This document shows, piece after piece, positions 356-49,766 of a DNA stretch of 50,803 nt (the first letter of the stretch is position 1; every line of letters starts with the position of its first letter). The notes under the pieces are model-generated. The model made no database searches. It was not told the origin of the DNA and saw only the letters and a program-made list of their open reading frames with translations. The DNA lies in the NCBI GenBank assembly GCA_031763465.1, contig JARFOE010000203.1, forward strand, positions 6,205,208 through 6,256,010, in the 5' to 3' direction. The translations under genes and the position numbers were made by a program. Source of the stretch: Squatina squatina. Taxonomy: Eukaryota.

Positions 356-586
356 CAGGGTTGATAACGTCCATTATATCTCGCCACACTTTATACTGGA
401 TGGGTCCTTTGAATGACCCCAGAGGGAGCTTGCCTTCTGTGACTGACGTCTGATAATTGCTGTCACTGATAATGCAAACATGAAACATTAGAAACTAGAA
501 ATAGGCAGTAAAATGTGGATTGGTGTTAATGTACACACACATTCAATGAAAAGCGATCCCTACCTCTTCCCCTTATCTGGATCGTC
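356..586 (-). CDS. TRIM (C-IV, TRIM69/TRIM39-like) gene fragment: 23-nt exon (586-564) and pre-PRY exon (465-356)
   Basis: AG/GT-bounded exons of 23 nt (DDPDKGK) and 110 nt (DSNYQTSVTEGKLPLGSFKGPIQYKVWRDIMDVINP). Phases and the KGPIQY-W-INP motif match exons 4-5 of the complete TRIM at 25162-29094. Absent from the ORF track. Confidence 0.85.
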
Positions 587-1662
587 CTGCAACCAAACAA
601 AACATAGGTTGAAGAATGGTGGCGTTACAGCAGATGGCAGGTGATGTCACGGTGCACCTCATTAGAGCAATGAGGCTCGATTGAAATGATCAAAAACTCA
701 CCTTCCACGTTTGAGAATTCCCCAGAAAGATATAAATATACATATGGAATTTTAAAAATTTACTTCTGGTTAAGGATTAAAATCAGAAGCACGCACAGAA
801 ATGTGCCGAGGATATGCTGTTGATGTGGTTAGTGGGCAACGCAGAACAGGCCGATATGGTGTCCCTCTGTCTGCTAAATCAAGGGGAGGCATTAGCAAGT
901 ATAAAATATCACCTGCATTACAGTAGCGAAGATAAATGATATGATGTTCANNNNNNNNNNNNNNNNNNNNNNNNNNNNNNNNNNNNNNNNNNNNNNNNNN
1001 NNNNNNNNNNNNNNNNNNNNNNNNNNNNNNNNNNNNNNNNNNNNNNNNNNGTATATTCAAAATGTAGGGCAATTTTACTCATGTTGCAAATACTTAATTG
1101 ATATGGCTGTTGCAGTAAAGACTCTACTGGCTCTACCAATACCAATAGTCTAAATTCATTTTTCAGACTACAGTACTTCTTGATAAAAGGAATCATAAAG
1201 TTCTGAATGCCACAGCTCTTAATTTCCATCAATGAGGCTGACTGGCTAATTCGTGAACAACATTGGGAGCAAAAAATAAGCTATTGAGGCATTGAGTATT
1301 CTATTCACTCCAGAAAAGCAGCTTTTCTTTGTAAAAGGCCAGCATAGGAAAATAAATAATCTGACGTAATGTGACAATCATTTTCCCCATAAGAGTTGCC
1401 TGAGCATTGTAGCACATTTCTGGTTTGGGATTATTATGTGTTGTTTTAGGGAATATTTGAATGCTATTGAGTGAGGTTTAATTATTTGCAGCAGTTCATG
1501 AAGACCCATCACCACCTTCTCAGGGCACTCAGGGATGNNNNNNNNNNACTTCCTGACAAAAAGTGAGAAGACGACACTATGAAATAAACTTTTACCATGA
1601 GTATGGCCATTATCTGAAGAAAGGTCTTTCTCTTTCCTTTGTGTTCTGCAGGTTGTATAAAG

Positions 1663-3806
1663 ATGGAGGACTTGCCAGAAATGTACATAATCTTCCAGGG
1701 CGAGGTACATCTTTCAACATGTACACAGATTGTTGCTTTAAATACACACAAATTTCTTACAATTTTTATTACCTGTAAAAAAAAAACCTGCTTAAATTAA
1801 TTTTTCAGGTTGCAACTGTAACAGAGTATGGAGCATTTATTAAAATTCCTGGTTGCAAACGGCAAGGTACATTATCTTACCAATTTTGTACACAGTATAT
1901 AGTATCTTACAGTTTTATATTTAAATATGTGCAGATAGCACTATTATTAAGATACACAAGTCCTTTCCACTCATTGAATTATACTAAGTGTGCGTCATCT
2001 TTTATTTTTATTGTTGTGGCTCTTGCCAAATTAGATACACGCTGTTCTATAAAATGCCTGATCAATATTTGCTACCAGTTGTATATGTTCCAAACTAGCA
2101 ATTCCAAATTCAAGCCAACAAACTCAGCGGCATAAATCAGAAGTAGAAACGGAGCAGTGAGCTGTGCCATACCAGGGCGAGTCACTGGGCTACGTGGGCC
2201 GGATAGCCAGGGGTCGTGGGCACTGTAGGCAGGATCTGTTCACTGAATGCTTGTTTTATTTTGCAGGTCTTGTTCACAAGTCACATATGTCAGCAAGTCG
2301 GGTGGATAATCCATCCGAGATTGTTGATGTTGGAGAAAAAGTCTGGGTTAAAGTAATTGGAAAAGAGGTATGGCAACTATCCCTGGACTTTCTCAAAGCT
2401 GCATGTGATTTTGAGAGAATTTTTCACAGCTCCATTCCTCTGATGATCTGTGGGGAAGATATCCTCCTTGTGCAATGTGCAACTAAATTAGATACATATT
2501 TGTCATAAATGGATTTACAATTTTGTGTCACATAGNNNNNNNNNNNNNNNNNNNNNNNNNNNNNNNNNNNNNNNNNNNNNNNNNNNNNNNNNNNNNNNNN
2601 NNNNNNNNNNNNNNNNNNNNNNNNNNNNNNNNNNNNNNNNNNNNNNNNNNNNNNNNNNNNNNNNNNNNNNNNNNNNNNNNNNNNNNNNNNNNNNNNNNNN
2701 NNNNNNNNNNNNNNNNNNNNNNNNNNNNNNNNNNNNNNNNNNNNNNNNNNNNNNNNNNNNNNNNNNNNNNNNNNNNNNNNNNNNNNNNNNNNNNNNNNNN
2801 NNNNNNNNNNNNNNNNNNNNNNNNNNNNNNNNNNNNNNNNNNNNNNNNNNNNNNNNNNNNNNNNNTAAAAGGAGTTTGAGGGGACATGAATTGTGTAAAG
2901 CAAGTAAAAATACACCTGCTTTTCTCACTTTTCTTTGAGGAGCTTATAGATCCGGTGGATTAGGGGAGTCAGTGGCTGTCATCAACTTGGATTTCAGAGA
3001 AGCGTTTGACACGATCTCACATGAAAGATTGATTCACCAGGTGCATGCCCATGTAATAGATAGCAAAATATTTGACTGGGATGATACATGGCATTTGGAG
3101 ATTTCATCGTGGAAAGTGGTTGCCAGTGGAGTCCCGCGAGACGTGTTATGGTTGCAGTGTAAGTTTTTATGAATGATTTAGAGGACAGAATATTGTTCAC
3201 TGTCTGAGATTACAGCGTGAACCCAAATTGTGTGCAGCAACCAATGGTGCAAACCAATGTGCGATAATCGAAAAGGTCCTGGACAGGCTGGATCAATAGG
3301 CAGAAAAGTGGTGGGTGGAATTAGCACAGATAAGTGTAAAATGATAAGAATAGGTAGAAAAATCAAGGATGTGGAGTACACATTAAATGTTACTTGGTTC
3401 TTGGAATTCTGTAGCGTGGTTTCCTACAGTTCAGCTGGTCCGCCAGATGTTCTGAAGTCGCAGCTCCTGCTGTTTTCAATAGAGCTGTTCTGGAACGTAT
3501 TCCATAATTGACGTTTTAAAAACCATCAAGGAAATATGTGGAAAGAGTGTCAGTCCTCTTGTATAAAAAGGAGAGTACTTGAAACAAAATGTAATTCCCC
3601 ATTTCTTCAGCAACATATACCTGACTTCACATGTTTGTGTAATGCTACAGCATTTAATAAACCTTGTGTATATAAGGTACTTGATTATAATTAAAAACAA
3701 GCTTTTGTTTTTAGGTGAAGGATGGCAAAGTCAAGCTTTCTCTTTCAATGAAGGCTGTCAATCAAGGATCTGGGCAGGACCTCGATCCAAATAACGTTGC
3801 TCTTGA
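1663..3806 (+). CDS. ZCCHC17: Zinc finger CCHC domain protein 17 / pNO40 (S1 domain), first four coding exons: 1663-1704, 1809-1866, 2267-2367, 3715-3806; 3' exons missing
   Basis: Spliced translation MEDLPEMYIIFQGE-VATVTEYGAFIKIPGCKRQG-LVHKSHMSASRVDNPSEIVDVGEKVWVKVIGKE-VKDGKVKLSLSMKAVNQGSGQDLDPNNVALE matches the ZCCHC17 S1 domain. All junctions are GT-AG and in frame. Confidence 0.95.
2900..3390 (+). mobile_element. Highly decayed CR1 LINE RT fragment in ZCCHC17 intron
   Basis: AVINLDFREAFDTISHERLI resembles the CR1 RT motif YLDFxKAFDxVPHxRL; VASGVP and DKCKMIRIGRK follow; multiple frameshifts. Confidence 0.7.
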
Positions 3807-4132
3807 GTATGTGTTTTTGTTAATGGCTTTGACTTGTTTATTTCTAAAATGCATTGTGATAACTTTAAAAGATTTCGAATTAAAAAGTTACTTTTCGAAC
3901 ATGGGTTACTAGGGTGAAAAGCTGACCAATAAACGACAAGGAAGCCCATTGAACATTTGTTCACAATTACTCACATGTCTTTTCTTGTATTTGTATTTTT
4001 TTCAGTTCTTCATCATTTCCAGCTCTTCACTGNNNNNNNNNNNNNNNNNNNNNNNNNNNNNNNNNNNNNNNNNNNNNNNNNNNNNNNNNNNNNNNNNNNN
4101 NNNNNNNNNNNNNNNNNNNNNNNNNNNNNNNN

Positions 4133-6094: not shown

Positions 6095-6819
6095 CTGGCT
6101 TCCAGACAGCAGGCGGAGAGTTTCATTGAGGAGTTAAATTGTCCCATTTGTCCCGATTTCTTCTCCGATCCGGTTATGCTGGAGAGCGGACACAACTTCT
6201 GCCGCTCCTGTGTCACCCGGCCCCGCGAAAACAAGGAGGCGACAAACTCCTGCCCGGAATGTAGAGAGGAGTTTGGAGACAGAAACCTCCCGGTCAATCC
6301 GGCCTCAGCGGGTCTGGCCGAGAAAGCTCGAACATTAAACCTGAATGGGAAAAGGAAAGCAAGTAAACTTCACTGTGAGGAACATCAGGAAGAACTGAAG
6401 CTGTTTTGTGAAACTGACAAGAAACTGATCTGTGTGACGTGCCTGGGCTGGGAGAGACGGACAGAGTGACGAGTCGCGCCGCTTCCTGCTGATCAATGAA
6501 GCTGTTCAGATCTCCAGGGTGAGATTCACTTGATCCAGTCCTTCACTCGCATATTTTCAGAAACACTTTATTCTGTGATTTTTTCTCCCAATCTCAGGAT
6601 CGGCTGAAATCTTCCTTAGATTCTCTCACAGAGAAGAAATCGGCGGCTCTAGAAACGGAATTAAAACAGGAACAGCAGGTTTCCGGAGTTAGGGTGAGGT
6701 CTTCCTGTGCTGATTTTCCGGGATCTCGGTTAGTTTTGTTCTCTTTATCGCGGTACATTAATTATGTTTCACATTTCATTTGTTAGGAACAGTCGAGCAG
6801 TCTGCAGACCCGCATCACA
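6095..6819 (+). pseudogene. TRIM RING-B-box pseudogene (exons 6095-6518, 6598-6693, 6787 to gap)
   Basis: Paralog of 7212-7752. ATG is replaced by CTG (6095), a RING Cys is lost (LESGH versus LECGH), and the B-box has a TGA at 6467 plus a frameshift before RFLLINEAVQISR. Splice sites and the 96-nt exon are preserved. Confidence 0.8.
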
Positions 6820-7211: not shown

Positions 7212-7752
7212 ATGGCTTCCAGACACGAGGCGGAGAGTTTCACAGAGGATTTAAATTGTCCCATTTGTCTTGATTTCTTCACCGATCCGGTTACACTGGA
7301 GTGTGGACACAACTTCTGCCGCTCCTGTATCACACAGTATTGGGAAAAGAAGGAGACAAACTCCTGCCCGGAATGCAGAGAGGAGATTCCGGAAATAAAC
7401 CTCAAGGTTAATTGGGCCTTGGCGAGTCTGGCCGAGAAAGCTCGAAAATTAAACCTGAATCCGAAAGAGAAGGAAAGTAAATTTCACTGTGAGGAACATC
7501 AGGAAGAACTGAAGCTGTTTTGTGAAACTGACAAGAAATTGATCTGTTTGGTTTGTCGAGATGCGCGGGGACACAGAGAGCACCGCTTCAGGCCCATTAA
7601 AGAAGCTGTTGGAATCTACAAGGTAAAAGGGATCAGATGTGATCTCCTGATTATTTTATCACATTTTCATGGTCCAACACTTTAATTCTGTGATTTTCTC
7701 TCCCAATCCCAGGATCGGCTGAAATCTTCCTTAGATTCTCTCACAGAGAAGA
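7212..7752 (+). CDS. TRIM (RING + B-box2) E3 ligase, exon 1 (7212-7622) and start of exon 2 (7713 to gap)
   Basis: C3HC4 RING CPIC...CGHNFCRSC...CPEC and B-box CEEH...FC...CLVC...H..H. The 411-nt exon ends at AAG|gtaaaa; the next exon begins DRLKSSLDSLTEK. Confidence 0.9.
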
Positions 7753-11215: not shown

Positions 11216-11497
11216 GTTTGGTTTCAGAACGCCAGAGCTAAGCTCCGGAAGACCCTCTTGCAGGAGGAGAACACGGACAGCGACACCGTGCCGGAGACGC
11301 AGGAGCTGTCGCGCTCCCCGGTGGCCCAGCAGAACACGGGGGCCCCGGGCCCCCCCAGCCCCCTCTTCTCCACCCCCAACGGCTCGGCACCCTGCCCCCA
11401 GCCGGCCGGGCCAACGATGGCGCCCATCTTCCTGAACTTCGACCCCGCAGAGCCCTCCGACTCCCTCCGGACCATCGACCGCACCAATTTGTGCTAA
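11216..11497 (+). CDS. LIM-homeobox LHX2/LHX9-subfamily terminal exon (homeodomain helix 3 + C-terminal tail)
   Basis: Acceptor tgtag|GTT TGG TTT CAG AAC GCC gives VWFQNARAKLRKTLLQEENT...TNLC*. The phase-0 intron before VWFQN, the ARAK-R--LL-EN motif and the terminal TNLx are LHX2/9 hallmarks. The ORF track misses the homeodomain part. Confidence 0.85.
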   Translation, partial: VWFQNARAKLRKTLLQEENTDSDTVPETQELSRSPVAQQNTGAPGPPSPLFSTPNGSAPCPQPAGPTMAPIFLNFDPAEPSDSLRTIDRTNLC

Positions 11498-11972: not shown

Positions 11973-12263
11973 CTGTGATGTTTAAGAGAGCCACCAGCGG
12001 CCGGGAGAGTTGGCCACCAGCCACACCATAGAGGTAAATGGTATAGTTGGTTGTCGGCCTGAGGCCTGTGATGTAGGCTGATCGGTGTTCGTCAGGTACC
12101 GTGATGTTCTGCAGGGTGTCAGAACCCTGAGCTCTGTACTGTATCAGGAAGGAGTCAAAGACACTCTCAGCTATCCAGGAGAGCTGGAGGGAGTCAGCTG
12201 TGATGTTAGAGAATGAAAGGCTCCCAAATGTGTGCGATGTTACTCCCTCTTTGTCTGTGGAAG
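11973..12263 (-). CDS. TNXB: Tenascin-X-like fibronectin type III exon (291 nt, phase 1-1)
   Basis: ASTDKEGVTSHTFGSLSFSNITADSLQLSW...FDSFLIQYR...ITGLRPTTNYTIYLYG...; polypyrimidine-AG acceptor and GT donor. TNXB versus TNC is inferred from MHC context and the FDSF..QY motif. Confidence 0.75.
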
Positions 12264-12459
12264 CTAAAGGGAGAAGAAGAAGAAGAAAAAAAAAGAAATA
12301 TACACAACACTTTACTGAGGGGAAACTGCTGCTGCTCAACTACAAGAGGAAGCGCTTCCTTACAGTTTCAACTCTCCAACAGACCACAGTGCCTTGTGTT
12401 GCCCAGGCAACTGTCTGTCGACAGTAAGTGAGGACTCTGATTGTCAGTGCGTCACAATT

Positions 12460-12850
12460 GTAGAATCTCATGGCCCATTGTGCCTGTGCTGGCTCTTTGA
12501 AAGAGCTGTCTAATTAGTCCCACTCCCCACCCCCGTCCTTTCCCCTTAGTCCTGTAATTTTTTTCCTTTCAAGTATTTATCCAATTCCCTTTTGAAAGTT
12601 GCTATTGAATCTGCTTCCACCGCCCTTTCAGGCAGTGCATTCCAGATCACAACAACTTTCTCATCTCCTCTCTGGTTCTTTTGCCAATTATCTTAAATCT
12701 GTGTCCTCTGTTTACCGACTCTCCTGCCAGTGGAAATAATTTCTCCTTATTTACACCTTATCAAAACCGTTCATAATTTTTGAATTCCTCTATTTAATCT
12801 CCCCTTAACCTTCTCTGCTCTAAGGAGAATAATCCCAGCTTATCCAGTCT
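12460..12850 (-). mobile_element. CR1 LINE 3' fragment
   Basis: cccctttcaggcagtgcattccagatcacaacaac...ccccttaaccttctctgctctaaggagaa is the reverse of the CR1 ORF2 end. Confidence 0.8.
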
Positions 12851-12917
12851 CTGAAGTCAAAGCGTAAAAGTTAAACTTTTGACATGAAGCTGATGATTCT
12901 AACTTTCTCTTCCCCAG

Positions 12918-13085
12918 CTGATAGCTATTGTGATGGATGTATTCACCGACATTGACATCTTCTGTGATGTGCTTGAGGCAGCCAACAAGCGCATGGTCAC
13001 TGTTTACCTGCTACTAGACCAGTGCTCTTTACAATACTTCACTGACATGTGTGAAAAACTCCAGATAAAAGACAGCCACCTAAAG
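12918..13085 (+). CDS. FAM83A: FAM83 family DUF1669 exon, FAM83A-like (168 nt, phase 0-0)
   Basis: cccag|LIAIVMDVFTDIDIFCDVLEAANKRMVTVYLLLDQCSLQYFTDMCEKLQIKDSHLK|gtatg; EAANKR and DSHLK are as recalled for FAM83A. Confidence 0.85.
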
Positions 13086-13261
13086 GTATGTGTTTTGTCA
13101 GCATTATATTAAAGAGTAAAATAATCCAGTTTTAAAACTACGCAATACATATTATGTATATCTGGGCTCACACTTGGTCTAGGAATGGGAGAGTGACCAA
13201 CTCTTATGGAACTGAGCCCGGGTAAAACAACAGGGGATGTTGAGAAAAGTGACAAGCCAAA

Positions 13262-13450
13262 AGCTCAGAGCAGTGAAGGCTAAGGGGAGATTTAATAGAG
13301 ATGTTCAAAATTATGAAGTGTTTTGATAAAGTAAATGAGGAGAAACTGTTTCCACTGGCGGGAGGGTTGGTAACCAGAGGACACAGATTTAAGATAATTG
13401 GCAAAAGAAATGAGGAGAATTTTATTTTACGCAGCGAGTTGTTATGGTCT
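13262..13450 (+). mobile_element. CR1 LINE fragment
   Basis: RLRGDLIEMFKIMKCFDKVNEEKLFPLAGGLVTRGHRFKIIGKR. Confidence 0.8.
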
Positions 13451-14055
13451 ATATTTACTGCTTTAAAGCCTACTCTGAGTATATTTTCCTCTGTTCCCTG
13501 CGAACCTAAAAGTGCTGGGATACTGTCCCATGGGTACCGGTCACTCACTGGCGTTACACCCACGTGCCCATTGACAATATGAATGGGATAGAGAGCATCA
13601 ACAGATTGCATGTGCATGCCAGGCATCACAGGCCCAAACCTGACCTCACTCAACGCACTGACATTTCCAATNNNNNNNNNNNNNNNNNNNNNNNNNNNNN
13701 NNNNNNNNNNNNNNNNNNNNNNNNNNNNNNNNNNNNNNNNNNNNNNNNNNNNNNNNNNNNNNNNNNNNNNNCCACGAACAACCCGTCACTCTTGAAGCAG
13801 TACAATCAACTCTAGAGCTTTAAAAATCATTTCTTCCTTCAAGGCATCCACACTGTACAGAAACAAACAACATTTGAGTTTTCAGGTAAATGGACAATGA
13901 AAGTGGTTATCGTTCCAAGATGGCGGACAACGGTTGCCATAGCAGCGCTGGAGCTTCAAGGAGCATCCGAGGTGATAATTCTTTTTGTACAAGATGGGAA
14001 AAGACTGTGCAAAGTTAAAATAATTTCCCTGAGAAAACTTGCTGGCGAAGAATAC

Positions 14056-14355
14056 CTGCAGTGGTTATTATAGTGGTTAGTGGCCTTGTTCGTCTGCTGC
14101 CGGAGACCCCATAGAGAGAAACCAGGTACTTGGTACTGGGCCTTAGGCCTCTGATGAAGGACGACTGTCGGTCCCCAGTTACGGTGAAGTTCTGCGTCTC
14201 TTCGGAACCCTCGACTCTGTACTGGATGAGAAATGAGTCAAACCCACTCTCGGCCGCCCAAAAGATTTGGAGGGAGTCCTGTGTGACATTATTCCCTGAA
14301 AGTCGGATAAGTTTACCCAGCCTGCTCGGTTTTATGCCATTGGTATCTATGAAAA
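14056..14355 (-). CDS. TNXB: Tenascin-X-like FNIII exon (300 nt, phase 1-1)
   Basis: FIDTNGIKPSRLGKLIRLSGNNVTQDSLQIFWAAESGFDSFLIQYRVEGSEETQNFTVTGDRQSSFIRGLRPSTKYLVSLYGVSGSRRTRPLTTIITTA; canonical splice sites; absent from the ORF track. Confidence 0.75.
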
Positions 14356-14819
14356 CTGGAAAAAAAAAGGAGAAACACCCGACTTAAAGACCGTGTTGTG
14401 GGCAATCACCCCTCACTGTAAGTTGGTCGAAATCATATCAAGCACCTTTTTTGTTTTGGGTTAACTATCCACCGCCTCCTAAAGATGGATGGGTGGAAAG
14501 CAATGGTCACTGTAAGCAGGTAAAAGAGGAAAAAAAAACTCAACTCAGGCGGGTGACCAATATATACCAGTCACCGTGATGCTAGTTCAGAGGTTCCTCC
14601 GTGTTGAGTTTCCTTGTGAAGAGAAATCAATTGGCAGCCGAATAACTGTCGGTTCAGATGAGGAAATGTCGCACTGATTTCCCAAGGGGGAGGGGGCAGG
14701 AATCATTGCGGGCTGAAGTAGGGGTTTAAGGCGCACTCTTATCGCACTCACCTATATACACCATGTGTTTTAGTAGAGAAGCCCTCCGAACATTGCACGC
14801 TTCATGTGTTACAGTAGAT

Positions 14820-15225
14820 AAGATTTGTAGACTATATACACTGTATATTATGGTACAGAGCTACAGCAGAAAATATACCGTATATTATTGTATTCATTCA
14901 CAGCGCTATATACACTTTATTATTGTACAAATTCCACAGAGCTATATACACTATATCTTATTGTACAAGGTCCACAGAGCTATATACACTGCATATAATA
15001 TGGTCCAGATCCACAGAGCTATATACATTGTATATTATGGTACAGGTCCACAGGTATATACGATGTATATTATGGTACAGAGCCACACACAGGAGCAGCA
15101 GGTCTGCAGAGGTATATACATTGTATCTTATGGTACAAAGCCACACATACAAGGAGCAGGTCTACAGAGGTATATACACTGTATATTATGGTAGAGAGCC
15201 ATATGCAGGTCCACAGGTATAGACA
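14820..15225. repeat. Degenerate AT-rich tandem repeat (core tatatacactgtatattatggtacag, units about 35-55 bp)
   Basis: Core motif repeated about 9-10 times with variable ccacagag/ggagcagg spacers. Confidence 0.85.
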
Positions 15226-15475
15226 GCAACAGTCCTCGGTAAAGTGAATCATACTGCTCTTGTGTTCATTCACTGCTCTTTCACTCATTCGACCACCATT
15301 CACCACTTAATCTGGGCTCTAAATTTGCAAAAGCGGGAGGGAGAGACATCCCGTAAACACACATTCAGACAGAGAGGGGACAAGTTTAAAGTTTGCACTA
15401 AACTGACAGGACAGTTAGCGCAGTTAAACTTGGTCCATTTGCTGTTTCAGGGAAGAGGTAGAGGTTACCAGATAT

Positions 15476-15713
15476 ACTTCCAACAATAGAGATGGCGGAT
15501 TGCTCCAGTGAGATCACAGAACTCGAACTGCAGGGCATTGAGGCAAAATGGTGCCCCAAACCATTTGTACCATGAGGAAATGATAAAGTAAGCATTCGCG
15601 GAGCAGAAAGCAACAGTCTGAGGTGAACAGTGTGCCAGGGCCTTGGTTAAGCAGATAGGAGTCACAAGGATCAGTCATCAACCTGACTGGGAAACTACCT
15701 CAGAAAGAAAGCT
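15476..15713 (-). pseudogene. Probable decayed FNIII pseudo-exon
   Basis: Residual motifs in shifting frames (DSYLL, AYFI, caccat..ctc.at, AISIV) are collinear with the neighbouring FNIII exons; the downstream intron 15341-15405 resembles 16131-16220. Confidence 0.4.
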
Positions 15714-15759
15714 ACATCAGATTCTTCCCAATCAGAAAGAAACTGGGAAACCTCACAGG

Positions 15760-29094: not shown

Positions 29095-29104
29095 GTTCAC
29101 ACTC

Positions 29105-34304: not shown

Positions 34305-34580
34305 ATGGTCAGAGTATGGCGGCCAACTCTCCTCATCAAGCTGCCAGGCATCCACTGCCCTCCAGGAAGGCCATTCTCTACCCACGCTCCATTGCCTCAG
34401 CTGCCGGTCCCTCCACTGAAACATACATTGGAACGCTACCTCCTGGCACTACAGCCCCTCGTGACCCTAGAGGAGTTGGAACAGACGAAGCAAATGGTGA
34501 GAGAGTTCAGCAGACCACGTAGTATCGGACTAAAACTACAGGACAGGCTGGAAAGGCGATCTCGAAGGACTGAAAACTGG
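34305..34580 (+). CDS. CRAT: Carnitine O-acetyltransferase-like, N-terminal coding exon (276 nt)
   Basis: gcag|MVRVWRPT...LPQLPVPPLKHTLERYLLALQPLV...LQDRLERRSRRTENW|gtaagt; contains the LPxLPVPxL acyltransferase signature. Confidence 0.85.
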
Positions 34581-35478
34581 GTAAGTGTTAGGAGTTGTCA
34601 CAACAAACAATACGGGACACTACAATTCCTCTCTGAATTCCTGCAGATTGATGTGAAAGTGGGAGTGCGGGACGTTGCGGGGGGTGGGGTGCGCGGTGGG
34701 AGGGGTGCTGAAATCAGAAAAATGTACTTGAGCACCATCAAGTGGTCATTGGGTGATGACTGGATTGGGCTCGGTTGTGATGCCTTGCAGTGTCAAATAG
34801 CAGCCCGCTTGATCGGCATCCCATCCGCCACCTCTTCATTTACTTTGGTGAGCTGCAGGGTGCTAAACGGACATCTCAATAGGTTGAAGCTGGCCAATAT
34901 CTGGGTGCCATCAGTGTAAATGCGAGTCCCAGAGTGGCAGAGGCCTAGAGTACTTTAGTCGGGCCCAGGAGGGGCCCTCCTGCTGCTCGGGGCCCGAAAG
35001 AAATAANNNNNNNNNNNNNNNNNNNNNNNNNNNNNNNNNNNNNNNNNNNNNNNNNNNNNNNNNNNNNNNNNNNNNNNNNNNNNNNNNNNNNNNNNNNNNN
35101 NNNNNNTACAGTATTGTAGCTGCTAATCCCTTTTACCATTATCAATGGTGACAAATGGTAATCAATTGGTTAGCATTTAAGTCTGTGCACAGCCATGTGA
35201 CTTAAATTATTATTATATAAGAGAATGTTACAAGTTGGATTTGACCTTCTGTGCTATTGGAATATAGGTCATAGTTGATGAAAATAGTAGTGCTTATGAT
35301 GGTTTAGCACACTTTATAGCTCAAGTATCTAATTGTGCGATTAGGGGCTATTATTAGACCTGGTATTATACAGATAACTGGACAGGGCTGTTGAAGCAGC
35401 GAGTGCTCATTAACTATTTGGGAAATTTGTACAGAACATTTTTCTTTAAAATTATATACTGGTTTTGTTTAATCACAG

Positions 35479-35616
35479 GCACTTAAAGGAATGGCAATTG
35501 ACAGACACTTGCTGGGCCTGAAGCTGCAGGCTATTGAAGAAGGTCTAAGTGTGCCGGAGATCTTCATGGACACCTCTTTTGCTGTGGCAACACACTGGAG
35601 GCTCTCGACAGGGCAG
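35479..35616 (+). CDS. CRAT: CRAT-like penultimate exon (138 nt)
   Basis: cacag|ALKGMAIDRHLLGLKLQAIEEGLSVPEIFMDTSFAVATHWRLSTGQ|gtgcgt; DRHLLGL motif; absent from the ORF track. Confidence 0.88.
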
Positions 35617-35756
35617 GTGCGTTTAAGCTGGGCATAGGAAATAATGAACGCTTCAGTGCTGGTGTCGATAGTCTGAACCCTCATGGAGGTTACCACAAAG
35701 CAGCCATTCCCAGATGTTCTTCATTGTCTCACTTTTGACAGTCCTGGAACAGCAAT

Positions 35757-36210
35757 AAGACCATAAGAAGACCAAAAGAAATAGGAACCAGGGGTAGGCC
35801 ATTCAGCCCCTCGAGCCTGCTCCGCCATTCAATGAGATCATGGCTAATCTGCGATCTAACTCCAGATACCCGCCTTTGCCCCATATCCCTGAACACCTTT
35901 GGTTAACAAAAATGTATCAATCTCCAATTTAAAATTAACAATTAATCTAGCATCAATTGCTGTTTGCAGAGGAGAGTTCCAAACTTCTACCACCCTTTGT
36001 GTGTACAGGTGTTTCCTAATTTCACTCCTGAAAGGTCTGGCTCTAATTTTTAGACTACGCCCCCTACTCCTGGACTCCCCAACCAGCGGAAATAGTTTCT
36101 CTTTATCTACAGTATCTGTTTCCTTTAATATCTTGAAAACTTCGATCGGAGCACCCTTAACCGTCTAAATTCGAGGCAATACAACCCTAATGTTTGTGAT
36201 CGCTCCTCAT
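35757..36210 (-). mobile_element. CR1 LINE 3' end
   Basis: aggccattcagcccctcgagcctgctccgccattcaatgagatcatggct (reverse of the CR1 tail) plus the ORF2 end. Confidence 0.85.
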
Positions 36211-36261
36211 TTTCAACTTTCTTCTTTCGTACGGTAGTAGCAAAGCAAATCAAATGTCAAT

Positions 36262-36530
36262 ATCTAAGTCAGATATCCAGGTAATCCAGTATAACAGCCT
36301 GGATATCTTGTAGGCTGCCGGTGAATTTCCTCCTGAGGGCAGTGCTCAATGATGTGCTCCAGGGTCTGTTGAGGAGTTCCACAGTCACATGATGGGGATG
36401 CATGAATCTTCCAGCTATGGAGAAGGTGGCAGCTTCGACCACTTGATGAGGCACTTGATGGTTGTCCACTGTTTGTGAAGAAGGTTTGATTCTTTAGGTT
36501 GTACTGTGGTTTCACAGTGCCCGATTGCAA
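36262..36530 (-). mobile_element. Non-LTR retrotransposon C-terminal zinc-knuckle fragment (I/Ingi/Vingi-like)
   Basis: SPSCDCGTPQQTLEHIIEHCP CCHC motif. Confidence 0.6.
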
Positions 36531-37093
36531 TAGTCATTCTGTGACATCTTAAAATATTGCAGCCCTGTTACTGCTGGGAGTTATTTTAGTATTTTTACTG
36601 AATGGCAGGATTGCCAGCGCGAGTATGTTACAAAAGATTAAGCTATATCCATAATTGATACACATTCGAGGAGTGTATTTCAATACTTTAGGCCCAATGA
36701 ATTCCATATTTGTGCAATGTTTTAGGGTGTACTACAGACTGATACAACATTTTCATCAGCAGCAGCCAAATCGCTCATGAAAGTAAAAGTACCAAAACAT
36801 AGGAGTAGAACCGGAATGAAAAAGCTCAGGAGGACGGCCTCAGTAAGTAGTGATCTAACAATGTAGGAGGAAGGGAGAGAATGCGAAGTTCAGTGTGCAT
36901 TTAATGTCCAATGCAGAGTGAAAACACACTTGGCATTACCAATAGCAGCAGAGCACATACGGGGTGAAATCGGTCTTGGGGAGGTGGTGCATNNNNNNNN
37001 NNNNNNNNNNNNNNNNNNNNNNNNNNNNNNNNNNNNNNNNNNNNNNNNNNNNNNNNNNNNNNNNNNNNNNNNNNNNNNNNNNNNNNNNNNNNA

Positions 37094-37590
37094 TACCATC
37101 CAGGATGACTGGCACGCCATCCACCACCTTAAATATTCACTCCCTGCACCACCTGGCTGCAGCGTGGTGCATCTACAAGATGCACTGCAGCAACTTGCTG
37201 AGGTTTCTTTGGCAACACCTCCTAAACCCATGGTCTCTGCCACCTAGAAAGACAAGGACTGCAGGCGCATGGGAACACTACAACCTGCAAGTTCCCCTCC
37301 AAGTTACACACCATCCTGACTTGGAAATATATCGCCATTTCTTCATCGTTGCTGGGCCAAAATCCTGGAGCTCCCTCCCTAGCAGCATTATGGGCGTACC
37401 TTCACCACACAAGCTTCAGCGGTTCAAGGAAGGGGCTCACCACCACCTTGCCAGCATGGCCTGGTTGGGCCGAATGGCCTGGTTTCTGTGCTGTATATCC
37501 TATGTAATTCTCAAGGGCAATTAGGGATGGGCAATAAGTGCTGGCAATTGTCAGCGATGCCCACATCCCAGGAACGAATTAAAAAGAAAT
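37094..37590 (+). mobile_element. CR1-superfamily (Crack/L2-group-like) LINE 3' end with a short CR1/SINE tail inserted
   Basis: PSTTLNIHSLHH...CIYKMHCSN...FIVAGPKSWSSLP...LQRFKEGAHHHL. Confidence 0.7.
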
Positions 37591-37816
37591 GTTAACCAGT
37601 GCACAGAAGGGGGAAATGAAATTCCTGATTTGTCAGTGAATAGTTTCGATTGATTTTTAAAAATTTTTTTTTATTTATGAATGTTTATTCATGAAAAGAC
37701 AAATCTATTTTCATTTGTTTCCTGTTTTTTTCATTGCTCTTAGTGGAATCTTGCTGTGCAACATGCCTGGGGCTAAAGTATCCAAAGCAATTCTTGTATG
37801 TGAAGCGCTTTAAGAT

Positions 37817-37904
37817 GTTTGGTTGAAATGCATCTGTTACACTGTCAGCCTAGATTGTGTGTTTGGTTGAAATGCATTTGTTACACTGTCAGCCTAGATT
37901 GTGT
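37817..37904. repeat. 44-bp direct tandem duplication within a decayed SINE
   Basis: gtttggttgaaatgcat(c/t)tgttacactgtcagcctagattgtgt occurs twice. Confidence 0.85.
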
Positions 37905-38448
37905 GTTTGGTTCTGGGAGCGTAGCTTGGACCTATAACCTTCTGACTCTGATTACCGCTAAGTTCAGACAAACTTCACCAACGTAATTCCCTGCCTTGTC
38001 AATGCCTGTGCCTAATTTGCATGCAAGAACTCGTCATTTGTGTAATGAGCTTTGCACTTTCATTCTTCTGGCATCGTGCGAACTACAACCAACCAATGCA
38101 CCTCATATCAATCACCCTTTGTTTCTCTCTCTGACTTATGAGCTTTGGTTGGTCCAATTTACTGAAGAAACTGCAATCCTGTCTGTCGTCAATCCTGGCA
38201 GCCTCTGCATCCATCCAGGATCTGACACTTTGGCCGAGGTTCAGTCTCTGACTCACTGAACAGTCTGGGTCAGGAGTAAAGCTGTGAGGATGGGGTGGCG
38301 ATAGCAACGTGTAGTTTCAGTTTCCTGAGCTTGCAGGGTCCAAAATTGTAAGCCTGGTAGAGGTGGAGTTAATTCATGTACAATGCATGTGTCAGCTGTT
38401 TTGATGTTGAAAGATTGGCCTTAACCTTGAACCTTTTCTCCTATATAG

Positions 38449-38664
38449 GTGCCCGCCAGAACAGACTGCGTGATGTGCTTCGGTCCCATGGTGCCAGATG
38501 GATATGGTGTCTGGTACAATCCCCTACAAGATCATATCAATTTCTCTGTCTCTGCCTTCAACTGTTGTGAAGAGACTAACGCAGAATGGTTTTCAAAATC
38601 TCTGGAGGCTGCACTGTCAGACATGCAAAACTTAGTTTTAGAGACATCTAATCAGACTGCATAG
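38449..38664 (+). CDS. CRAT: CRAT-like last coding exon
   Basis: tatag|VPARTDCVMCFGPMVPDGYGVWYNP...SLEAALSDMQNLVLETSNQTA*; FGPxVPDGYGV motif. Confidence 0.88.
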   Translation: MPARTDCVMCFGPMVPDGYGVWYNPLQDHINFSVSAFNCCEETNAEWFSKSLEAALSDMQNLVLETSNQTA

Positions 38665-39680: not shown

Positions 39681-39965
39681 GTATTGGACACCAGCCCTGG
39701 ATTAACCTGGAGGGAATCAATAAACAAGGAGTTCATCTGGTGTGTAAATCTGATGGGTGGTATCCTGAGCCAAATGTACAGTGGCTGGCTGGGAATGGGC
39801 AAGTTGTAACTCCACAATCTGTATCAACACACAAAAGTGACTCCAGTGGCCTTTTTACTGTTCTGACTCAAATTGATGTAACAAGTGGTTCTGTGAACAG
39901 ATTCTCCTGTCTAATGCAAAACAGTTTATTGAACAAAGAGGAAGAGGCCCATCTCCAGATATCAG
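39681..39965 (+). CDS. Second butyrophilin/BTNL IgC exon (285 nt, phase 1-1)
   Basis: tgtag|GIGHQPWINLEGINKQGVHLVCKSDGWYPEPNVQWLAGNGQ...FSCLMQNSLLNKEEEAHLQIS|gtgtgt; paralog of 21807-22091. Confidence 0.85.
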
Positions 39966-40741
39966 GTGTGTGAGCAGCTTTTCATTGTTTTATAACAAAA
40001 CTTGCTGTGAAAATTTGTTCCCTCCTGTCTTGACGGTACTGACTGACTGGATATGGTTCCATCGTCATCAGTTATCCTCTGGTATGTCTTCCTGATGCTA
40101 TTTGTCATACGTGAGGCCCGATAGCTGGCTAGTCAAGTATTGGGGTACGACAGCCGAGCCCAATCCTATCCTCTTCCACCATCCACACGTGCACAATCCA
40201 GCAGAGGTCACAGGCTAGCATTCCACACCAGAAACATTGACTAACTTTATTTTTCACCCTTGGGCCAATTGTATTGCCTCCCCTTCTGCTGCCCTAGCTG
40301 TGACTTGCTCACTCAGTGGGGACAAGGAATGGAACCTGGGATTTTCTGGTCGTATGGGTTGCTTACACCCTAGTTTCATCAGCTAGGTCATTGGCGAACC
40401 AGCTGCAATCAGCTTTAAATGTGATATCATGACCTCCNNNNNNNNNNNNNNNNNNNNNNNNNNNNNNNNNNNNNNNNNNNNNNNNNNNNNNNNNNNNNNN
40501 NNNNNNNNNNNNNNNNNNNNNNNNNNNNNNNNNNNNNCTCACACATGAAGAATGTCCAATTGAACAAGGTGAGAGAGGGCTACTGTGTGAAACGGAGGGA
40601 AAAAAGGAAAGAACACTGAACGAAAAAGGAATATCAAAATCTGTGATAATAAAGGGATGGTCACATCTAGTATGATGTTAATGAACAGCAGAATTTCCCT
40701 GCACCCCGGGCTATCAACTCTAACCTTGTTTTCTCCTCAAG

Positions 40742-41034
40742 CCTTACAGGATGGAGGGCACCAAGCACCGATGTCACCTCCACCTTACCCAGTGCAGGAG
40801 GCCTCAGCAAACGGCACATCGGCAGGCTATTCGATGCCAATGCACCCTTCCACAATGACATTGGGCACAGACGGATTCGTCCAGGAGACTCAGTTTAACA
40901 GCTCATCTCAAGTCTATGCCATACCCACAAATCACCCCTCGGGGCCAATGTGGTCAGCAGGGTATGCACACCAAGGCTACGCCATGCAGTACCAGCCCTG
41001 TGCAGCTTACGTGCCAGTCTATCCCATGGCAAAT
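40742..41034 (+). CDS. PRRT1: PRRT1 (SynDIG4)-like proline-rich exon; acceptor at 40741 or 40749 uncertain
   Basis: SPPPYP...GYAMQYQPCAAYVPVYPMAN|gtgagt matches the PRRT1 QPCTAYVPVYP motif. Confidence 0.8.
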
Positions 41035-41689
41035 GTGAGTAAGACTCTTGTATGAAGGGTATCACAGTGGGGCGAGGCAAAGGCCCCAGGTACTGGCTGT
41101 GTTAGGTCAATGTTGTCTTCATATTGTCCCACAGTGAAGAGTGCAAAGATTGGCATGCTGAGAAGTGAACACTCCTTTCATAGCCAGAACCATCCTTCCA
41201 CCAGACACTAGGGTAGGTTAGTCCTTATAGGGTGGGAGGGTTTCATGAGTTTTACACAACCCATATGATGATGGGACAGGCCACCTAAACCCACCAGACA
41301 CAAGTATCCTGCTGGATGCTCACCAGCTGGAACTTCAGTCTCCTCTCACCGGGAGTGCCCGGAGCAGGATTTGAACCCGGCACCTTCTGACTCCGAGGCG
41401 GGAACGCTACTGCTAAGCCAAAGGCTCGCTCCACCAACAATAGGAGGGGAACCTGAGGCAACCACCTCTCCATGACGGCAGGTGGTGAATTTTCCAGCCA
41501 CATGGGGAGGGCGGGCACCAGAGATGTATCCATACTGCCTGTTGCATCCTATTGTCCATGCAAATTAGGTGCATTCCCACTGACCCTGGCAACTCCGCAA
41601 GGGCCGGTGCTGGAGGGAACTGATGGGTGCGATCTCAACATTACTGCCAGGATTGCACCCTGAGGAATTTCAATGTTCCTGTCTGTACA

Positions 41690-41870
41690 GTGATTCGAAT
41701 CGCCAATTAATCAATGGGAAATAGGCTGGGAATTTCCTGACTCTTGTCTATAAAGTGATTTGAGTTGCCAATTACTCTTTGGAAAAGAGGTTGGGAATAT
41801 CCTGGATCCTATCTTGACAGTGATTACAATCACCAATTACTCAATGGGAGAGAGGTTGGGAATTTCAAGG
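41690..41870. repeat. Three diverged 65-bp tandem units in PRRT1 intron
   Basis: gtgatt...ccaatta...gggaat(t/a)tc units start at about 41690, 41755 and 41820. Confidence 0.7.
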
Positions 41871-41952
41871 CTTCCCAGGCTGATCCTCCAACTCAGGACT
41901 GACTGTCTCAAGTGATGCTTACAATCTGAAACTGAGCTTCTCTTCTCCTCAG

Positions 41953-42132
41953 AATGTGGGACCATATCTCCCCGGAAACAACGGGATTACATCAGGCGGG
42001 CAACAGATGCCATCTTCCATCGCAATGATGAACCCCCCACGACCCCCTCACGATTACCTACCCATCGCAGTGTTGACTACAGTGTGCTGTTTCTGGCCAA
42101 CTGGGATTTTTGCCATAATTAAAGCTGTACAG
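41953..42132 (+). CDS. PRRT1: PRRT1 CD225/dispanin-domain exon, copy A (180 nt)
   Basis: ctcag|NVGPYLPG...RPPHDYLPIAVLTTVCCFWPTGIFAIIKAVQ|gtgagt. Confidence 0.9.
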
Positions 42133-42988: not shown

Positions 42989-43174
42989 CATCCTCAGCCC
43001 TATCTGCCAGTGTACAGTGGAATTCCACCAGGCACACAGCAGTCTCGGGTCCCTTCGGGATTCCGAATCGTAGAACCACAAAGGCCGCCTCATGACTACT
43101 TGCCCATCGCTGTGCTGACCACAGTTTGCTGTTTCTGGCCAACAGGAATCATTGCCATTATTAAAGCCCTGGAG
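42989..43174 (+). CDS. PRRT1-like CD225 exon, copy B (186 nt)
   Basis: tccag|HPQPYLPVYSG...EPQRPPHDYLPIAVLTTVCCFWPTGIIAIIKALE|gtaaaa. Confidence 0.85.
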
Positions 43175-44714: not shown

Positions 44715-44856
44715 CCTGGATGTCTGGGTACTTCATCATGATGTAAAGTGCCCAGCGAATGGTGGTGGCCGCAGTTCCCATCCCAGCGATGAACAGATCA
44801 CTTGTTGTGATCAGCAAGTTCTTCTCGTGGAAGTACGTGTTTGGGTTTCCCGACTC
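44715..44856 (-). CDS. Cytochrome P450 family 2 (CYP2K-like) I-helix exon (142 nt)
   Basis: ESGNPNTYFHEKNLLITTSDLFIAGMGTAATTIRWALYIMMKYPDIQ|gtaagg; 142-nt phase 0-1 exon typical of CYP2 exon 6. Confidence 0.85.
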
Positions 44857-45094
44857 CTTGAAAAGAGAATGGAGGACCACAGAATTAGATCAGAATACTC
44901 CGTTTCTGTTAATCTGCAGTGTGCATTTTGACAATTCTCCATTTCTGTTATTCTATAGTGTGAGTTATTACTGTAAACTCTGTGTTGTATAAATTATCTC
45001 AGATCCTATTATTCTGGGGTTGTGAGTTAACACTGTAATCTCAGTTACTATTATTCTGTGTGATTGTCAAACAGTCAAAGATTCTATTAATCTG

Positions 45095-46805: not shown

Positions 46806-48834
46806 CTGGAGGAGGTTACAGGGGCAAGGAAGTCTGAGGCCATGGAGGCATTGGAACACAAAGGTGAGAATTGTAACCAATGTAGGTCCACGAGCACAGG
46901 GGTTGATGGGCGAATGGGGACTTGGTGTGAGTTAGAACACAGACAGCAGAATTTTGGATGAATTGAAGTTTAGGGAGAGTAGAGTGGTGTGTCTGTGAAT
47001 TGGGATTTTCAGAATTGAGTTGGTGCCTTGTACCTTGTGTAACAGGGGCCGAATCATTGCATATTTAAAGGCGATGTACTGCAGATGTAGCTTTTAGGTT
47101 GGGCAGAGATTTGCAAGAGGTGTATGTCACAATTGCTGCTTGCAACACACTGTCACTTCTGAGGTCATTTGGCTATCTCTGACCTTTAACTTTGTCTGAA
47201 GGCTTCTTACCGGGTTTTGCCAGATCGACATTACTATGGCAATAACATTCCCAAGTTGCATTCACCCTTCCCCCCCANNNNNNNNNNAAACTGTATAACG
47301 CTGAAGTGACACGGAGGACCATTTGCACAGCGACTCGGTCAACATCCATCACAATGGCAACAGCATTCCCAAATCCCACTCGCATGTTGTTCTGTTGAAT
47401 GCCTGAACAGTTAGCGATCGCATTGCTATCTTAACACGGCCTCTGTCGCTGCGGAAACCACATGTCCATGTCCCAGGTCCAGCCTTGTTCTGTTTGATAA
47501 CAGCTGGACACAGATGTGTGGAGCTCCCTCTGTTGATCGCATTGTAAGCAAAATAAGGCCCGGGTTCCATGATCCGATTGATGGTTTTGTTGGTCCACGA
47601 AAACTTGCGCTCGTGATTCCCCCGTCAGGTCAGAGGAGCAGGTTTTAATGATGTNNNNNNNNNNAGTTGAGCCCACTGCACCCACAAAGACTGGCTCCCC
47701 CAAGTCTGTGTGTGAAGTGGAAAGTGTCACAGAGACATCATTCTTCCGAAATAGCCATCAGTGTAAAGGTTTGCACACCATAAGATCCCACGAACAACAA
47801 TGTGATAATGACCAGATAATTCTGTTTTTTTAGTGATGTTGATTGAGAGATAAATCCTTAGGACACCAGGGAGAACTTCCCTGCGCTTCTTCACAACAGT
47901 TCCCAGCAGGGGGAATTAACNNNNNNNNNNNNNNNNNNNNNNNNNNNNNNNNNNNNNNNNNNNNNNNNNNNNNNNNNNNNNNNNNNNNNNNNNNNNNNNN
48001 NNNNNNNNNNNNNNNNNNNNAAAAAATTCAACTCCTCTCCTCCTCTGCTTCTTTTGCTAATTATCTTAAATCTGTGCCCTCTAGCTAAGTGACACTCCTC
48101 TCACTGGAAACGGTTTCTCCCTATCTACTCTATCAAAATGCCTCATAATTTTGATTGCAATTTTCCATCTGCTAATGTCAAAGTATTAAAAAACTGCCAG
48201 CAATGCACCCGTGACTCTTCGATAAGCCACCCACTTTGTGGGGTCCGACAGTGCCACTGGGGGGAGGGGGAGGAGGGGAAGGAGATCTCGGAAAAATCCA
48301 CCCACTGGATGCATCAACAGCTTTGGGATAAATAGGTAAAAGTGCAATTGCTGAGTAAATCCTGCCTCTGCTTTTTTACAGCAAGCTAGCTGCTAGCACG
48401 AGAGAGAGAAAGCGCATTGGTCCAAAGTATATGGGCAGCTGTTCAATAGATTATTTTCATAAAGTCCTTACATGTTCAAAAACAACCTGGTCACAGGTTT
48501 AAAATCAGTTTGTGTTCAAGGTCCAATATTGTTACCTGCAGAAAGAATCACGGTTGATAAACTCTCAAAGGTCACAGTTGAAGATGATTACTTCGGTCCG
48601 CAGCCCGACAGGTTCAGTATTGAAGTCTCTATGTACTGACAAAGACAGGGGACATGTGCATCTTTTGCATGAATGGTGGCCCGAGTGCGAGGAAGTTGTT
48701 GCATTGCCAGTAGTTTTGCATAAAGTCCACTGTACGTGACCAGCAACTGATAAGCTATTTCCTGTAATAAAAAGAAAATAATACAGAACATAAAAAAAAT
48801 GAAATTAATCAAGGCAAAATATCATCAATCACAA

Positions 48835-49112
48835 CCTTGGCTCAGTGGTAGCTCTCTCAGGACATCCCAAAGTGTTTCACAACCAATGAAGTATGTTTGA
48901 AGTGTAGTCACTGATGTAAGGTAGGAAACATGGCAGCCAATTTACTCCCACAAGCAGCAATGTAAATACTGATTCAGGGATAAATATTGGCCAGGATACC
49001 AGAGATAACTCTCCTGCAATATACTGCCTGGGGATCTTTTGCATCCACTTGAGAGAGCAGATGTCCTCAGCTTAACATCTTATCCAAAGATGGCACCTCT
49101 AACAGTGCTGCA
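48835..49112 (-). mobile_element. Deu-domain SINE fragment
   Basis: ggacatcccaaagtgtttcac...gggataaatattggccagga...ccaaagatggcacctc. Confidence 0.75.
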
Positions 49113-49684
49113 AGAGATTAGTGTGCAAAATTAAAGCACATGGTATTGGGGGTAATGTATTGACGTGGATAGAGANNNNNNNNNNNNNNNNNNNNNNNNN
49201 NNNNNNNNNNNNNNNNNNNNNNNNNNNNNNNNNNNNNNNNNNNNNNNNNNNNNNNNNNNNNNNNNNNNNNNNNNNTGATGCGTAAATATGTTACTAAGGG
49301 GACAGATCACACTATTTTCAAATGTTCATTTTCATCCATGAAAAATACTTAATAAAGCCTGGCTTATATCCTAATGTCTGGATCATAGGAGGTTATACCT
49401 GAGAAATTTAAGCCAGTCAGCCTTAATACATTCATATTATTTCATATGGATAATGGTTATTTTTAATTCAGTTATACTTTTAATCTTGTTCAAATTATTA
49501 ACCTGCCCTATGCCAAATGCAGAAAAAAACAAACAGTAGTCTTTCAGGGTGTGATGGGAGATTGGAGCAAACATCCTTAAACCATAAGCCAAAAAGGAAT
49601 CTGTTTGGAAAACACGGCACAGGTGCCATTTTAAAATCCCCATGTATCTCAAAGAACTAGACAGAATAAAAGGAAAGATCTTAC

Positions 49685-49766
49685 GTTTCCTGGCCTCAGC
49701 AACCTTCTCTGCAGCACGTTTTTCAGCATGGAGAAGCTGCTGTATTCCTTGTGACTGGCTGGCCAT
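49685..49766 (-). CDS. ATP6V1G2: V-type ATPase subunit G, first coding exon (82 nt); G2 inferred from MHC context
   Basis: [28 protein letters not shown]|gtaag; an acceptor at 49818-49819 implies an upstream non-coding exon. Confidence 0.75.

Follow-up and report, generated by a model that had tools for sequence, protein, structure and literature searches.

A third LHX2/9-type gene, a putative retained duplicate, in a scaffold-compressed MHC class III region of the shark Squatina squatina

Introduction

The closest described counterpart of the DNA analysed here is the class III region of the elasmobranch major histocompatibility complex (MHC), for which gene orders are given in the MHC chromosome tables in the supplement of PMC10751288 (Verissimo et al. 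2023); all statements below on the rows of these tables refer to the portions of the sheets consulted. On sawfish chr34 (1.63-2.49 Mb), the region starts with Lhx9-like(+), CYP21A2, TNXB(-), BTN and TRIM genes and ppt2b, and continues with CRAT-like(+), TRIMs, two PRRT1-like(+), CYP2K6-like(-), TMEM268(-), ATP6V1G2-like(-) and neu1 (PMC10751288). The TNX gene of sharks was already placed beside Cyp21 and ATF6b in the consulted part of PMC11401434. In this study, we examined 50,803 nucleotides of Squatina squatina DNA (assembly GCA_031763465.1, contig JARFOE010000203.1, positions 6,205,208 to 6,256,010 of the forward strand), a whole stretch that we call the window, and we focused on its LHX exon, which fits a third LHX2/9 paralogue, and on the other genes of the window whose human relatives lie outside 6p21.

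Two further systems are relevant for comparison. First, the MHC of the reedfish, a bony fish, carries on chr1 the genes PPT2(-), CRAT-like(+), TRIM(-), prrt1(+) and TMEM268(-), together with an Lhx2-like gene, between c4b and psmb8a. As in the elasmobranch region, the PPT2/CRAT-like/TRIM/prrt1/TMEM268 block is on the same strands, and both the Lhx2-like gene and olfactomedin-like 2A are close to atf6b; in contrast to the window, the reedfish region has rearranged blocks, a single prrt1, an ATP6V1G2-like gene 4.6 Mb off and no zcchc17 row in the consulted sheet. Second, work on amphioxus and lamprey (bioRxiv 10.1101/2025.03.16.643586, consulted in part) pursues the same idea of an ancestral linkage group, the proto-MHC, behind the MHC paralogons. 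Its markers RXR, DDX39, BRD, C3/4/5, CACNA1, NOTCH, PSMB and PBX were not found in the window, which, unlike that proto-MHC, is a post-duplication region of a jawed vertebrate. A larger hypothesised proto-MHC chromosome is called a fusion artefact in the cited literature, as far as consulted. In human, LHX2 is at 9q33.3 and LHX9 at 1q31.3 (PMC2211742, consulted in part).

Results and discussion

The region represented in the window is the already known and tabulated elasmobranch MHC class III, which it matches in genes, order and strands between Lhx9-like/TNXB and ATP6V1G. When eight genes (Lhx9-like, TNX-like, CRAT-like, PRRT1 x2, CYP2, TMEM268 and ATP6V1G) were compared with sawfish chr34, and TRIM, BTN, ZCCHC17 and FAM83A were excluded from the order count, all 8/8 non-array genes agreed in strand as well as in order (Kendall tau 1.0, p 5e-5; chance of agreement in both together ~4e-7). 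On white shark chr19 (103.9-106.7 Mb), zcchc17(+), TNXB(-) and two PRRT1(+) are ordered as in the window and are followed by neu1, the ATP6V1G, CRAT and LHX rows of this species being unnamed in the gene table; its named markers agree in 5/5 cases. On catshark chr13, zcchc17, TNXB, two PRRT1 and atp6v1g1 give the window in reverse complement (5/5). The catshark sheet, sheet 3 of the PMC10751288 supplement, is titled chr37, and its legend and Table 1 give chromosome 13 (accession NC_052158.1). In all three species, C2/Bf lies at most ~0.5 Mb from the segment start, and C4, TAP1 and PSMB8 are on the same chromosome as the segment.

An earlier sequence-only reading of the window had taken it for a cartilaginous-fish MHC class III, had proposed a check for co-location with MHC I/II, C4, CFB and PSMB8/TAP and had placed CRAT-like and LHX2/9-like exons inside the MHC. 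The first point is borne out by the synteny with sawfish, white shark and catshark; co-location with C4, C2/Bf, TAP1 and PSMB8 is present in the chromosome-level relatives, where no scatter over several chromosomes was seen; and the CRAT-like and LHX2/9-like genes are indeed within the MHC on chromosome-level sawfish chr34 and reedfish chr1. The human class III orthologues TNXB, PRRT1 and ATP6V1G2 occur together in the window, the identity of the FN3 exons and of the ATP6V1G paralogue being positional. Compared with the tabulated regions of PMC10751288, the window differs in holding scattered exons only, in a foreign FAM83A exon and in that its open reading frames (ORFs) of at least 45 aa yielded no ATF6B, CYP21A2 or PPT2, genes that sawfish or white shark have within the interval. 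Taken together, we consider it probable, and with good confidence, that the window represents a real shark MHC class III compressed by scaffolding, with retained duplicates, later changes and one foreign exon.

The LHX2/9-like exon had also been proposed in the sequence-only reading, and it is present: it gave no Pfam match, but its only protein matches, ten in number, are all named Lhx9-like or Lhx2-like. They come from sharks, rays and lungfish at 55-83% identity (83% for Heterodontus, 80% for white shark and 55% for lungfish Lhx9-like), and no full-length LHX2 or LHX9 matched above 37%. Two unrooted trees were used, one with 40 rows (39 from 132 stored proteins plus the exon; LG+G4) and one with 23 rows, without the exon, under a mixture model. 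A third LHX2/9 clade obtained 100/100 in both trees, is common to cartilaginous and bony fishes (lungfish) and contains the window exon in the 40-row tree, where the exon, with 78-83% identity to several shark orders, sits in an open fork. Full-length third-type relatives have the LIM domains and homeodomain of LHX2 and LHX9 and have the VWFQNARAK stretch in common with them. The white shark third gene has 49% identity to LHX9 and 46% to LHX2, compared with 79% between LHX9 and LHX2; in a 60-residue homeodomain stretch, LHX2 and LHX9 do not differ at all, whereas the third gene differs from them at 15/60 sites. The third-type homeodomain was found in 20 of 153 stored proteins, each at most two changes from the white shark sequence, and since the lungfish protein shares it, the lungfish link is not merely a long-branch effect.

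In three sharks, the three genes also differ in chromosomal position. Lhx9-like, LHX9 and LHX2 records were assigned to chromosomes via record length, and the Lhx9-like record fits the MHC chromosome in length, as judged by the last listed gene of the latter: 115.85 Mb vs 115.61 in white shark, 163.47 Mb vs 163.38 in catshark and 1,974.1 Mb vs 1,973.4 in lungfish. The sawfish Lhx9-like gene is listed by name on chr34. LHX9 and LHX2 are on other records, of 123.5 and 179.0 Mb in white shark, 244.3 and 71.0 Mb in catshark, and 105.8 and 144.6 Mb in basking shark, in which the Lhx9-like record has 96.3 Mb; in these three species, the three LHX2/9 genes thus occupy three different chromosomes. From the sequence comparison, the window exon fits a genome-duplication copy, a third LHX2/9 paralogue, in a tree that is unrooted. 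Among the 120 listed of 539 matches, no third-type LHX of tetrapods or teleosts occurred; the reedfish gene is not listed among them either, so that this absence is no proof of loss.

A similar distribution was seen for CRAT. The three CRAT exons of the window align at 80-89%, and in the right order, with a single bamboo shark protein, P0133 (residues 9-104, 361-419 and 419-489), and the closest solved structure to P0133 is carnitine acetyltransferase (564 bits vs 344 for choline acetyltransferase). The CRAT search gave 931 proteins, of which 150 were listed, and among 18 looked up, P0133 was the only named shark protein. Human CRAT is at 9q34, and TMEM268 and ATP6V1G1 are at 9q32. In reedfish, crata is on the 9q-type chr9 and the CRAT-like gene is in the MHC on chr1, and CRAT of lungfish and elephant shark is on a 9q-type chromosome or scaffold. 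Copies of crata and LHX2 are found on the 9q-type chromosome of both reedfish and lungfish, as retained duplicates predict. TMEM268 is MHC-linked in sawfish and reedfish and lies on the 9q-type chr12 in lungfish, a distribution that fits reciprocal loss or a move; no species in the consulted tables has two named TMEM268 copies, several sheets being without gene names, so unnamed second copies are possible. Olfactomedin-like 2A, which was not seen in the window, adjoins atf6b at 1.50 Mb of sawfish chr34 and at 66.27 Mb of reedfish chr1, and reedfish and lungfish carry olfml2a on the 9q-type chromosome. We regard this gene as a candidate for another retained duplicate.

In the open-access literature, as far as consulted, we found no description of a third shark Lhx2/9 gene or of CRAT in the MHC, and supplements may mention either. 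Ohta et al. (2006) reportedly found a carnitine acetyltransferase gene in the Xenopus MHC, which would make the CRAT part less new. In the main text of PMC10751288 there are 0 matches for lhx, crat, tmem268 and zcchc17. The third LHX2/9 gene is possibly undescribed and is annotated only as "Lhx9-like".

The genes discussed above could also have reached the MHC later, if a segmental duplication or a translocation had brought LHX, CRAT and TMEM268 there from the 9q or 1q paralogon after the genome duplications. The unrooted tree, in which the third LHX clade branches off among shark LHX9 rows, would suit such an arrival, as would TMEM268, which occurs as one copy per sheet, either in the MHC (sawfish, reedfish) or on the 9q-type chromosome (lungfish), and could be explained by a single move; ZCCHC17 is an example of genes moving into the region. 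However, the attachment on the LHX9 side lacks support, and the approximately unbiased (AU) test does not reject monophyly of LHX9 (p 0.316). Sawfish and reedfish both have CRAT-like, Lhx-like, OLFML2A-like and TMEM268 genes in their MHC, with crata, LHX2 and olfml2a still on the 9q-type chromosome. The diagnostic homeodomain is nearly identical in shark and lungfish, which places the third LHX copy before the split of the two. We therefore regard a later arrival as unlikely.

Not every gene of the window belongs to such an ancient set. The contig at 11932-13671 is gap-free and carries an FN3 exon and a FAM83A exon 650 bp apart, the latter being 86-89% identical to FAM83A of Heterodontus, Pristiophorus and Pristis, its three best matches. 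In human, FAM83A is at 8q24. One reading is that this species has the exon truly nested within an intron of TNX, and the single gap-free contig, the short distance and the intact splice sites of the FAM83A exon speak for it; in three relatives, both flanks also stop at this repeat family. On the other hand, FAM83A and Lhx9-like are on records of different length, and hence on another chromosome, in 7/7 species in which each of the two is on a chromosome-scale record, namely Heterodontus, sawfish, Mustelus, two catsharks, epaulette shark and brownbanded bamboo shark; two skates, in which a small scaffold carries the LHX gene, were excluded. The consulted parts of the named sheets for sawfish chr34 and reedfish chr1 contain no FAM83 row, and a single FAM83A exon is present. 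Between the two exons lies a 380-bp high-copy repeat, at which the summed contig depth in three relatives was ~4e4 to 6e6, compared with 1-40 on the flanks. When reads and contigs were mapped on 11932-13671 (4 of 21 runs listed), all 20 reads placed in a raw-read run fell on repeats, and the contig sets of three relatives covered both flanks as separate records, none listed bridging the repeat; the contigs of these relatives break at every repeat, so the missing bridge is no proof of a chimera. We conclude that the FAM83A exon is probably a misassembly, a chimera mediated by the repeat, and a true nesting appears rather doubtful.

ZCCHC17 and the TRIM and BTN genes form a further layer. The zcchc17 gene is at 103.9 Mb (+) of white shark chr19 and at 12.1 Mb of catshark chr13 and is named in these two sheets only, no row being present in the consulted sheets for sawfish chr34 and reedfish chr1. 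At the start of white shark chr19 are genes such as tmem39b, hdac1 and snrnp40, which, like ZCCHC17, are 1p35 genes in human. This start of the chromosome suggests that a fused chromosome brought ZCCHC17 into class III, probably as a later insertion. Nor are the TRIM and BTN genes, which form expanded arrays, part of an ancient set; sawfish chr34 has ~30 TRIM rows in 3.5 Mb (counted by eye), and single TRIM or BTN contigs are weak markers because such genes stand in large local arrays. The sequence-only description of the window as a retained proto-MHC gene set can therefore be kept at most for LHX, CRAT, TMEM268, ATP6V1G, PRRT1 and TNX. It does not hold for the window as a whole, whose genes are not all of the proto-MHC linkage group, FAM83A being elsewhere, zcchc17 missing from the consulted sawfish and reedfish MHC sheets, and TRIM and BTN being arrays.

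The window is made of 31 contigs (256 to 8,642 bp; N50 1,779 bp) split by 30 N gaps, exactly 100 N long in 23/30 cases, and its genes are fragmentary, with single or scattered exons, except that the largest contig (8.6 kb) carries a complete TRIM-B30.2 gene without a gap. The same genes cover 0.86 Mb in sawfish, 2.9 Mb in white shark and 5.0 Mb in catshark, which corresponds to a 22-fold compression against sawfish and a 61-fold compression against white shark. The compression of the region to 50 kb is an artefact of the fragmented assembly, and the caveat in the sequence-only reading that scaffolding may have imposed the order was correct, the 22- to 61-fold compression being an assembly effect to which one foreign exon is added. 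Scaffolding tools of the reference-guided type put in 100 N by default. Short contigs, fixed gaps and perfect order together suggest that the contigs were placed along a related genome.

A random concatenation of unrelated pieces, which would make the gene mix meaningless, could be imagined from the uniform 100-N gaps, the low N50, the FAM83A exon foreign to the region, and TRIM and BTN contigs that could derive from any array. It is refuted for the non-array genes by the 8/8 order-and-strand agreement with sawfish; moreover, the three CRAT exons, on three contigs, are still in protein order, and the four FN3 exons are all on the same strand, so we hold this explanation to be very improbable. 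A genuinely compact MHC class III with its genes inside ~50 kb, as the face-value coordinates would have it, is rejected as hardly conceivable, since the genes are fragmentary (CRAT-like residues 105-360 and all LHX exons except the last are missing), ATF6B, CYP21A2 and PPT2 were not found among the ORFs of at least 45 aa and the one gap-free TRIM gene alone takes 3.9 kb.

Several points weigh against the scaffold-compressed class III with retained duplicates that we favour. First, the third LHX clade is a long branch whose attachment among the shark LHX9 rows has 89/89, is not starred and was obtained with no outgroup, and the AU result leaves LHX9 as one clade no more than not rejected. Second, in Mustelus asterias, in contrast to the other sharks compared, LHX9 and Lhx9-like (the P0015/P0024 pair) are on one record of 140,552,254 bp, perhaps through a lineage-specific fusion, and the lungfish Lhx9-like record also carries the 19-type paralogon. 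Third, tree support is for LHX only, the duplicate status of CRAT and TMEM268 coming from synteny, and the TNX identity of the FN3 exons comes from position and strand. Finally, reference-guided scaffolding is our reading of the assembly; if a related genome guided it, the order in the window copies that reference and is not new evidence for Squatina squatina, in which the window gives no independent linkage across its 30 gaps.

The features of the window are collected in Table 1. Pfam matches were obtained for 20/23 exon translations; those of the LHX exon, of a ZCCHC17 exon and of a TRIM linker exon gave none. The exon types named in the sequence-only reading (TNX-like, as FN3 exons, PRRT1, ATP6V1G, BTN, B30.2 TRIM and CRAT-like) are present by Pfam domain matches, and four genes absent from it were added, namely ZCCHC17/pNO40, FAM83A, a CYP2 exon and a DUF4481/TMEM268 exon. 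When 395 further window ORFs of at least 45 aa were scanned with Pfam (two in the + orientation, although listed as -), S1, RVT_1, DUF4481, V-ATPase_G and a single sub-threshold match were the only additions; the scan revealed no further cellular gene, and exons in ORFs below 45 aa would escape it.

Table 1 Features of the window, with positions counted from its first nucleotide.
Feature	Position	Strand	Basis
TRIM linker exon (coiled coil to B30.2)	357..470	-	Translation like exon 27351-27464 of the complete TRIM gene; no Pfam match
ZCCHC17 (pNO40), S1 domain, four exons over two contigs	1652..3807	+	PDB 2cqo matches
TRIM RING-B-box-coiled-coil fragment	6098..6819	+	Pfam RING, B-box; ORF stops at 6469, after B-box start
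TRIM RING-B-box exon and start of next exon	7212..7752	+	Pfam; 85% DNA identity to 28556-29127
Last exon of putative third LHX2/9 paralogue (RefSeq name Lhx9-like)	11216..11497	+	Protein matches, tree
Four FN3 exons (12013-12270, 14057-14344, 16411-16701, 17834-18115)	12013..18115	-	Pfam fn3, E 1e-12 to 8e-9
Very high copy repeat, likely chimeric junction	12470..12850		Between first FN3 exon and FAM83A exon
FAM83A internal exon, foreign to region	12918..13085	+	Pfam SACK1, E 1e-22
Butyrophilin-like immunoglobulin C-type (IgC) exon	21809..22090	+	PF22705, E 4e-21
Complete TRIM-B30.2 gene	25162..29096	-	Pfam RING, B-box, TRIM_CC (sub-threshold), PRY, SPRY; exon translations
CRAT-like, three exons on three contigs (34308-34580, 35478-35616, 38449-38661)	34308..38661	+	Carnitine acyltransferase domain; middle exons missing
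Second butyrophilin-like IgC exon	39683..39964	+	PF22705, E 3e-23
PRRT1-like gene 1, two exons	40741..42132	+	CD225, E 1.5e-9
PRRT1-like gene 2 exon	42989..43173	+	CD225, E 1.4e-9
Cytochrome P450 (CYP2) exon	44716..44871	-	PF00067, E 7e-12; position and strand of sawfish CYP2K6-like
TMEM268-like last exon	48588..48764	-	PF14800 DUF4481 positions 248-293, E 1e-14
ATP6V1G first exon	49685..49766	-	PF03179

Some of these assignments come mainly from position. The exons that the sequence-only reading had called TNX-like are FN3 exons, and their identity as TNX follows from their position and strand relative to sawfish and white shark TNXB and not from sequence; against solved structures, the best matches were fibronectin and Tencon, no tenascin-X chain being among the matches listed. 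For the P450 exon, CYP21A2 was rejected because sawfish CYP21A2 is on the + strand and adjoins TNXB, and CYP2K6-like fits both position and strand. The DUF4481 domain, which we take to be the TMEM268 family, met unnamed clusters only in the Atlas (0.78), and sawfish and reedfish have TMEM268(-) at the place of this exon. The ATP6V1G exon gave 35.5, 35.2 and 34.4 bits against G1, G2 and G3, so that the paralogue is not assignable by sequence; at its place, sawfish has a G2-like gene and catshark atp6v1g1. The tandem pair of PRRT1-like genes is also found in sawfish, white shark and catshark. Two ZCCHC17 exons match PDB 2cqo (nucleolar protein of 40 kDa) at residues 49-82 and 83-113 (E 3e-13 and 3e-9).

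RING-B-box exons begin at 6098, 7212 and 28684, and the PRY/SPRY exon at 25165. The first TRIM copy has 79-80% DNA identity to the other two and substitutions in RING and B-box, and it is probably a pseudogene. A tandem repeat with a unit of ~85 bp (~11 copies, ~80% identity) occupies 9732-10704; low-complexity or short tandem repeats at 14730-15230, 15750-16070, 33900-34100 and 42330-42722 give long open frames without protein meaning; and decayed reverse-transcriptase fragments resembling long interspersed nuclear elements occur at 2939-3169 and in other intronic stretches, with one sub-threshold RVT_1 match.

A plausible history can be proposed from the synteny. Two early vertebrate genome duplications would most likely have put LHX2/9-like, CRAT-like and TMEM268-like copies on the future MHC chromosome; sharks, rays and some early-branching bony fishes would have kept these MHC copies, and the human lineage only the 9q and 1q copies. 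Later layers would be the TRIM and BTN arrays, ZCCHC17 on a fused chromosome, and the FAM83A exon wrongly joined through a repeat. The window would then be a sparse sampling of a shark MHC class III of ~0.9 to 5 Mb, with short contigs placed along a related genome and joined by fixed 100-N gaps, which would produce the compression.

Conclusion

In conclusion, the region itself adds little, as its gene order is tabulated for three elasmobranchs and the window is without independent linkage; the gain is a short list of MHC-linked duplicates that are missing from the human MHC and serve as extra markers for how the 6p21, 9q, 1q and 19p paralogons pair. A warning taken from the FAM83A exon is that even gap-free contigs of this assembly can be chimeric. 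The part of the region worth following is the third LHX2/9 gene. On balance, we lean towards the view that the class III of jawed vertebrates held a third Lhx2/9 gene. This gene would have acquired a distinct homeodomain early, which then stayed nearly frozen from sharks to lungfish; it would persist in sharks, rays and lungfish, and probably in reedfish, and have disappeared from tetrapods and teleosts. If this is true, the gene would, together with CRAT-like, OLFML2A-like and the reciprocally retained TMEM268, extend the list of 6p21/9q duplicate pairs. In addition, the third LHX2/9 gene is a conserved developmental regulator, and expression studies in sharks could confuse it with Lhx9.

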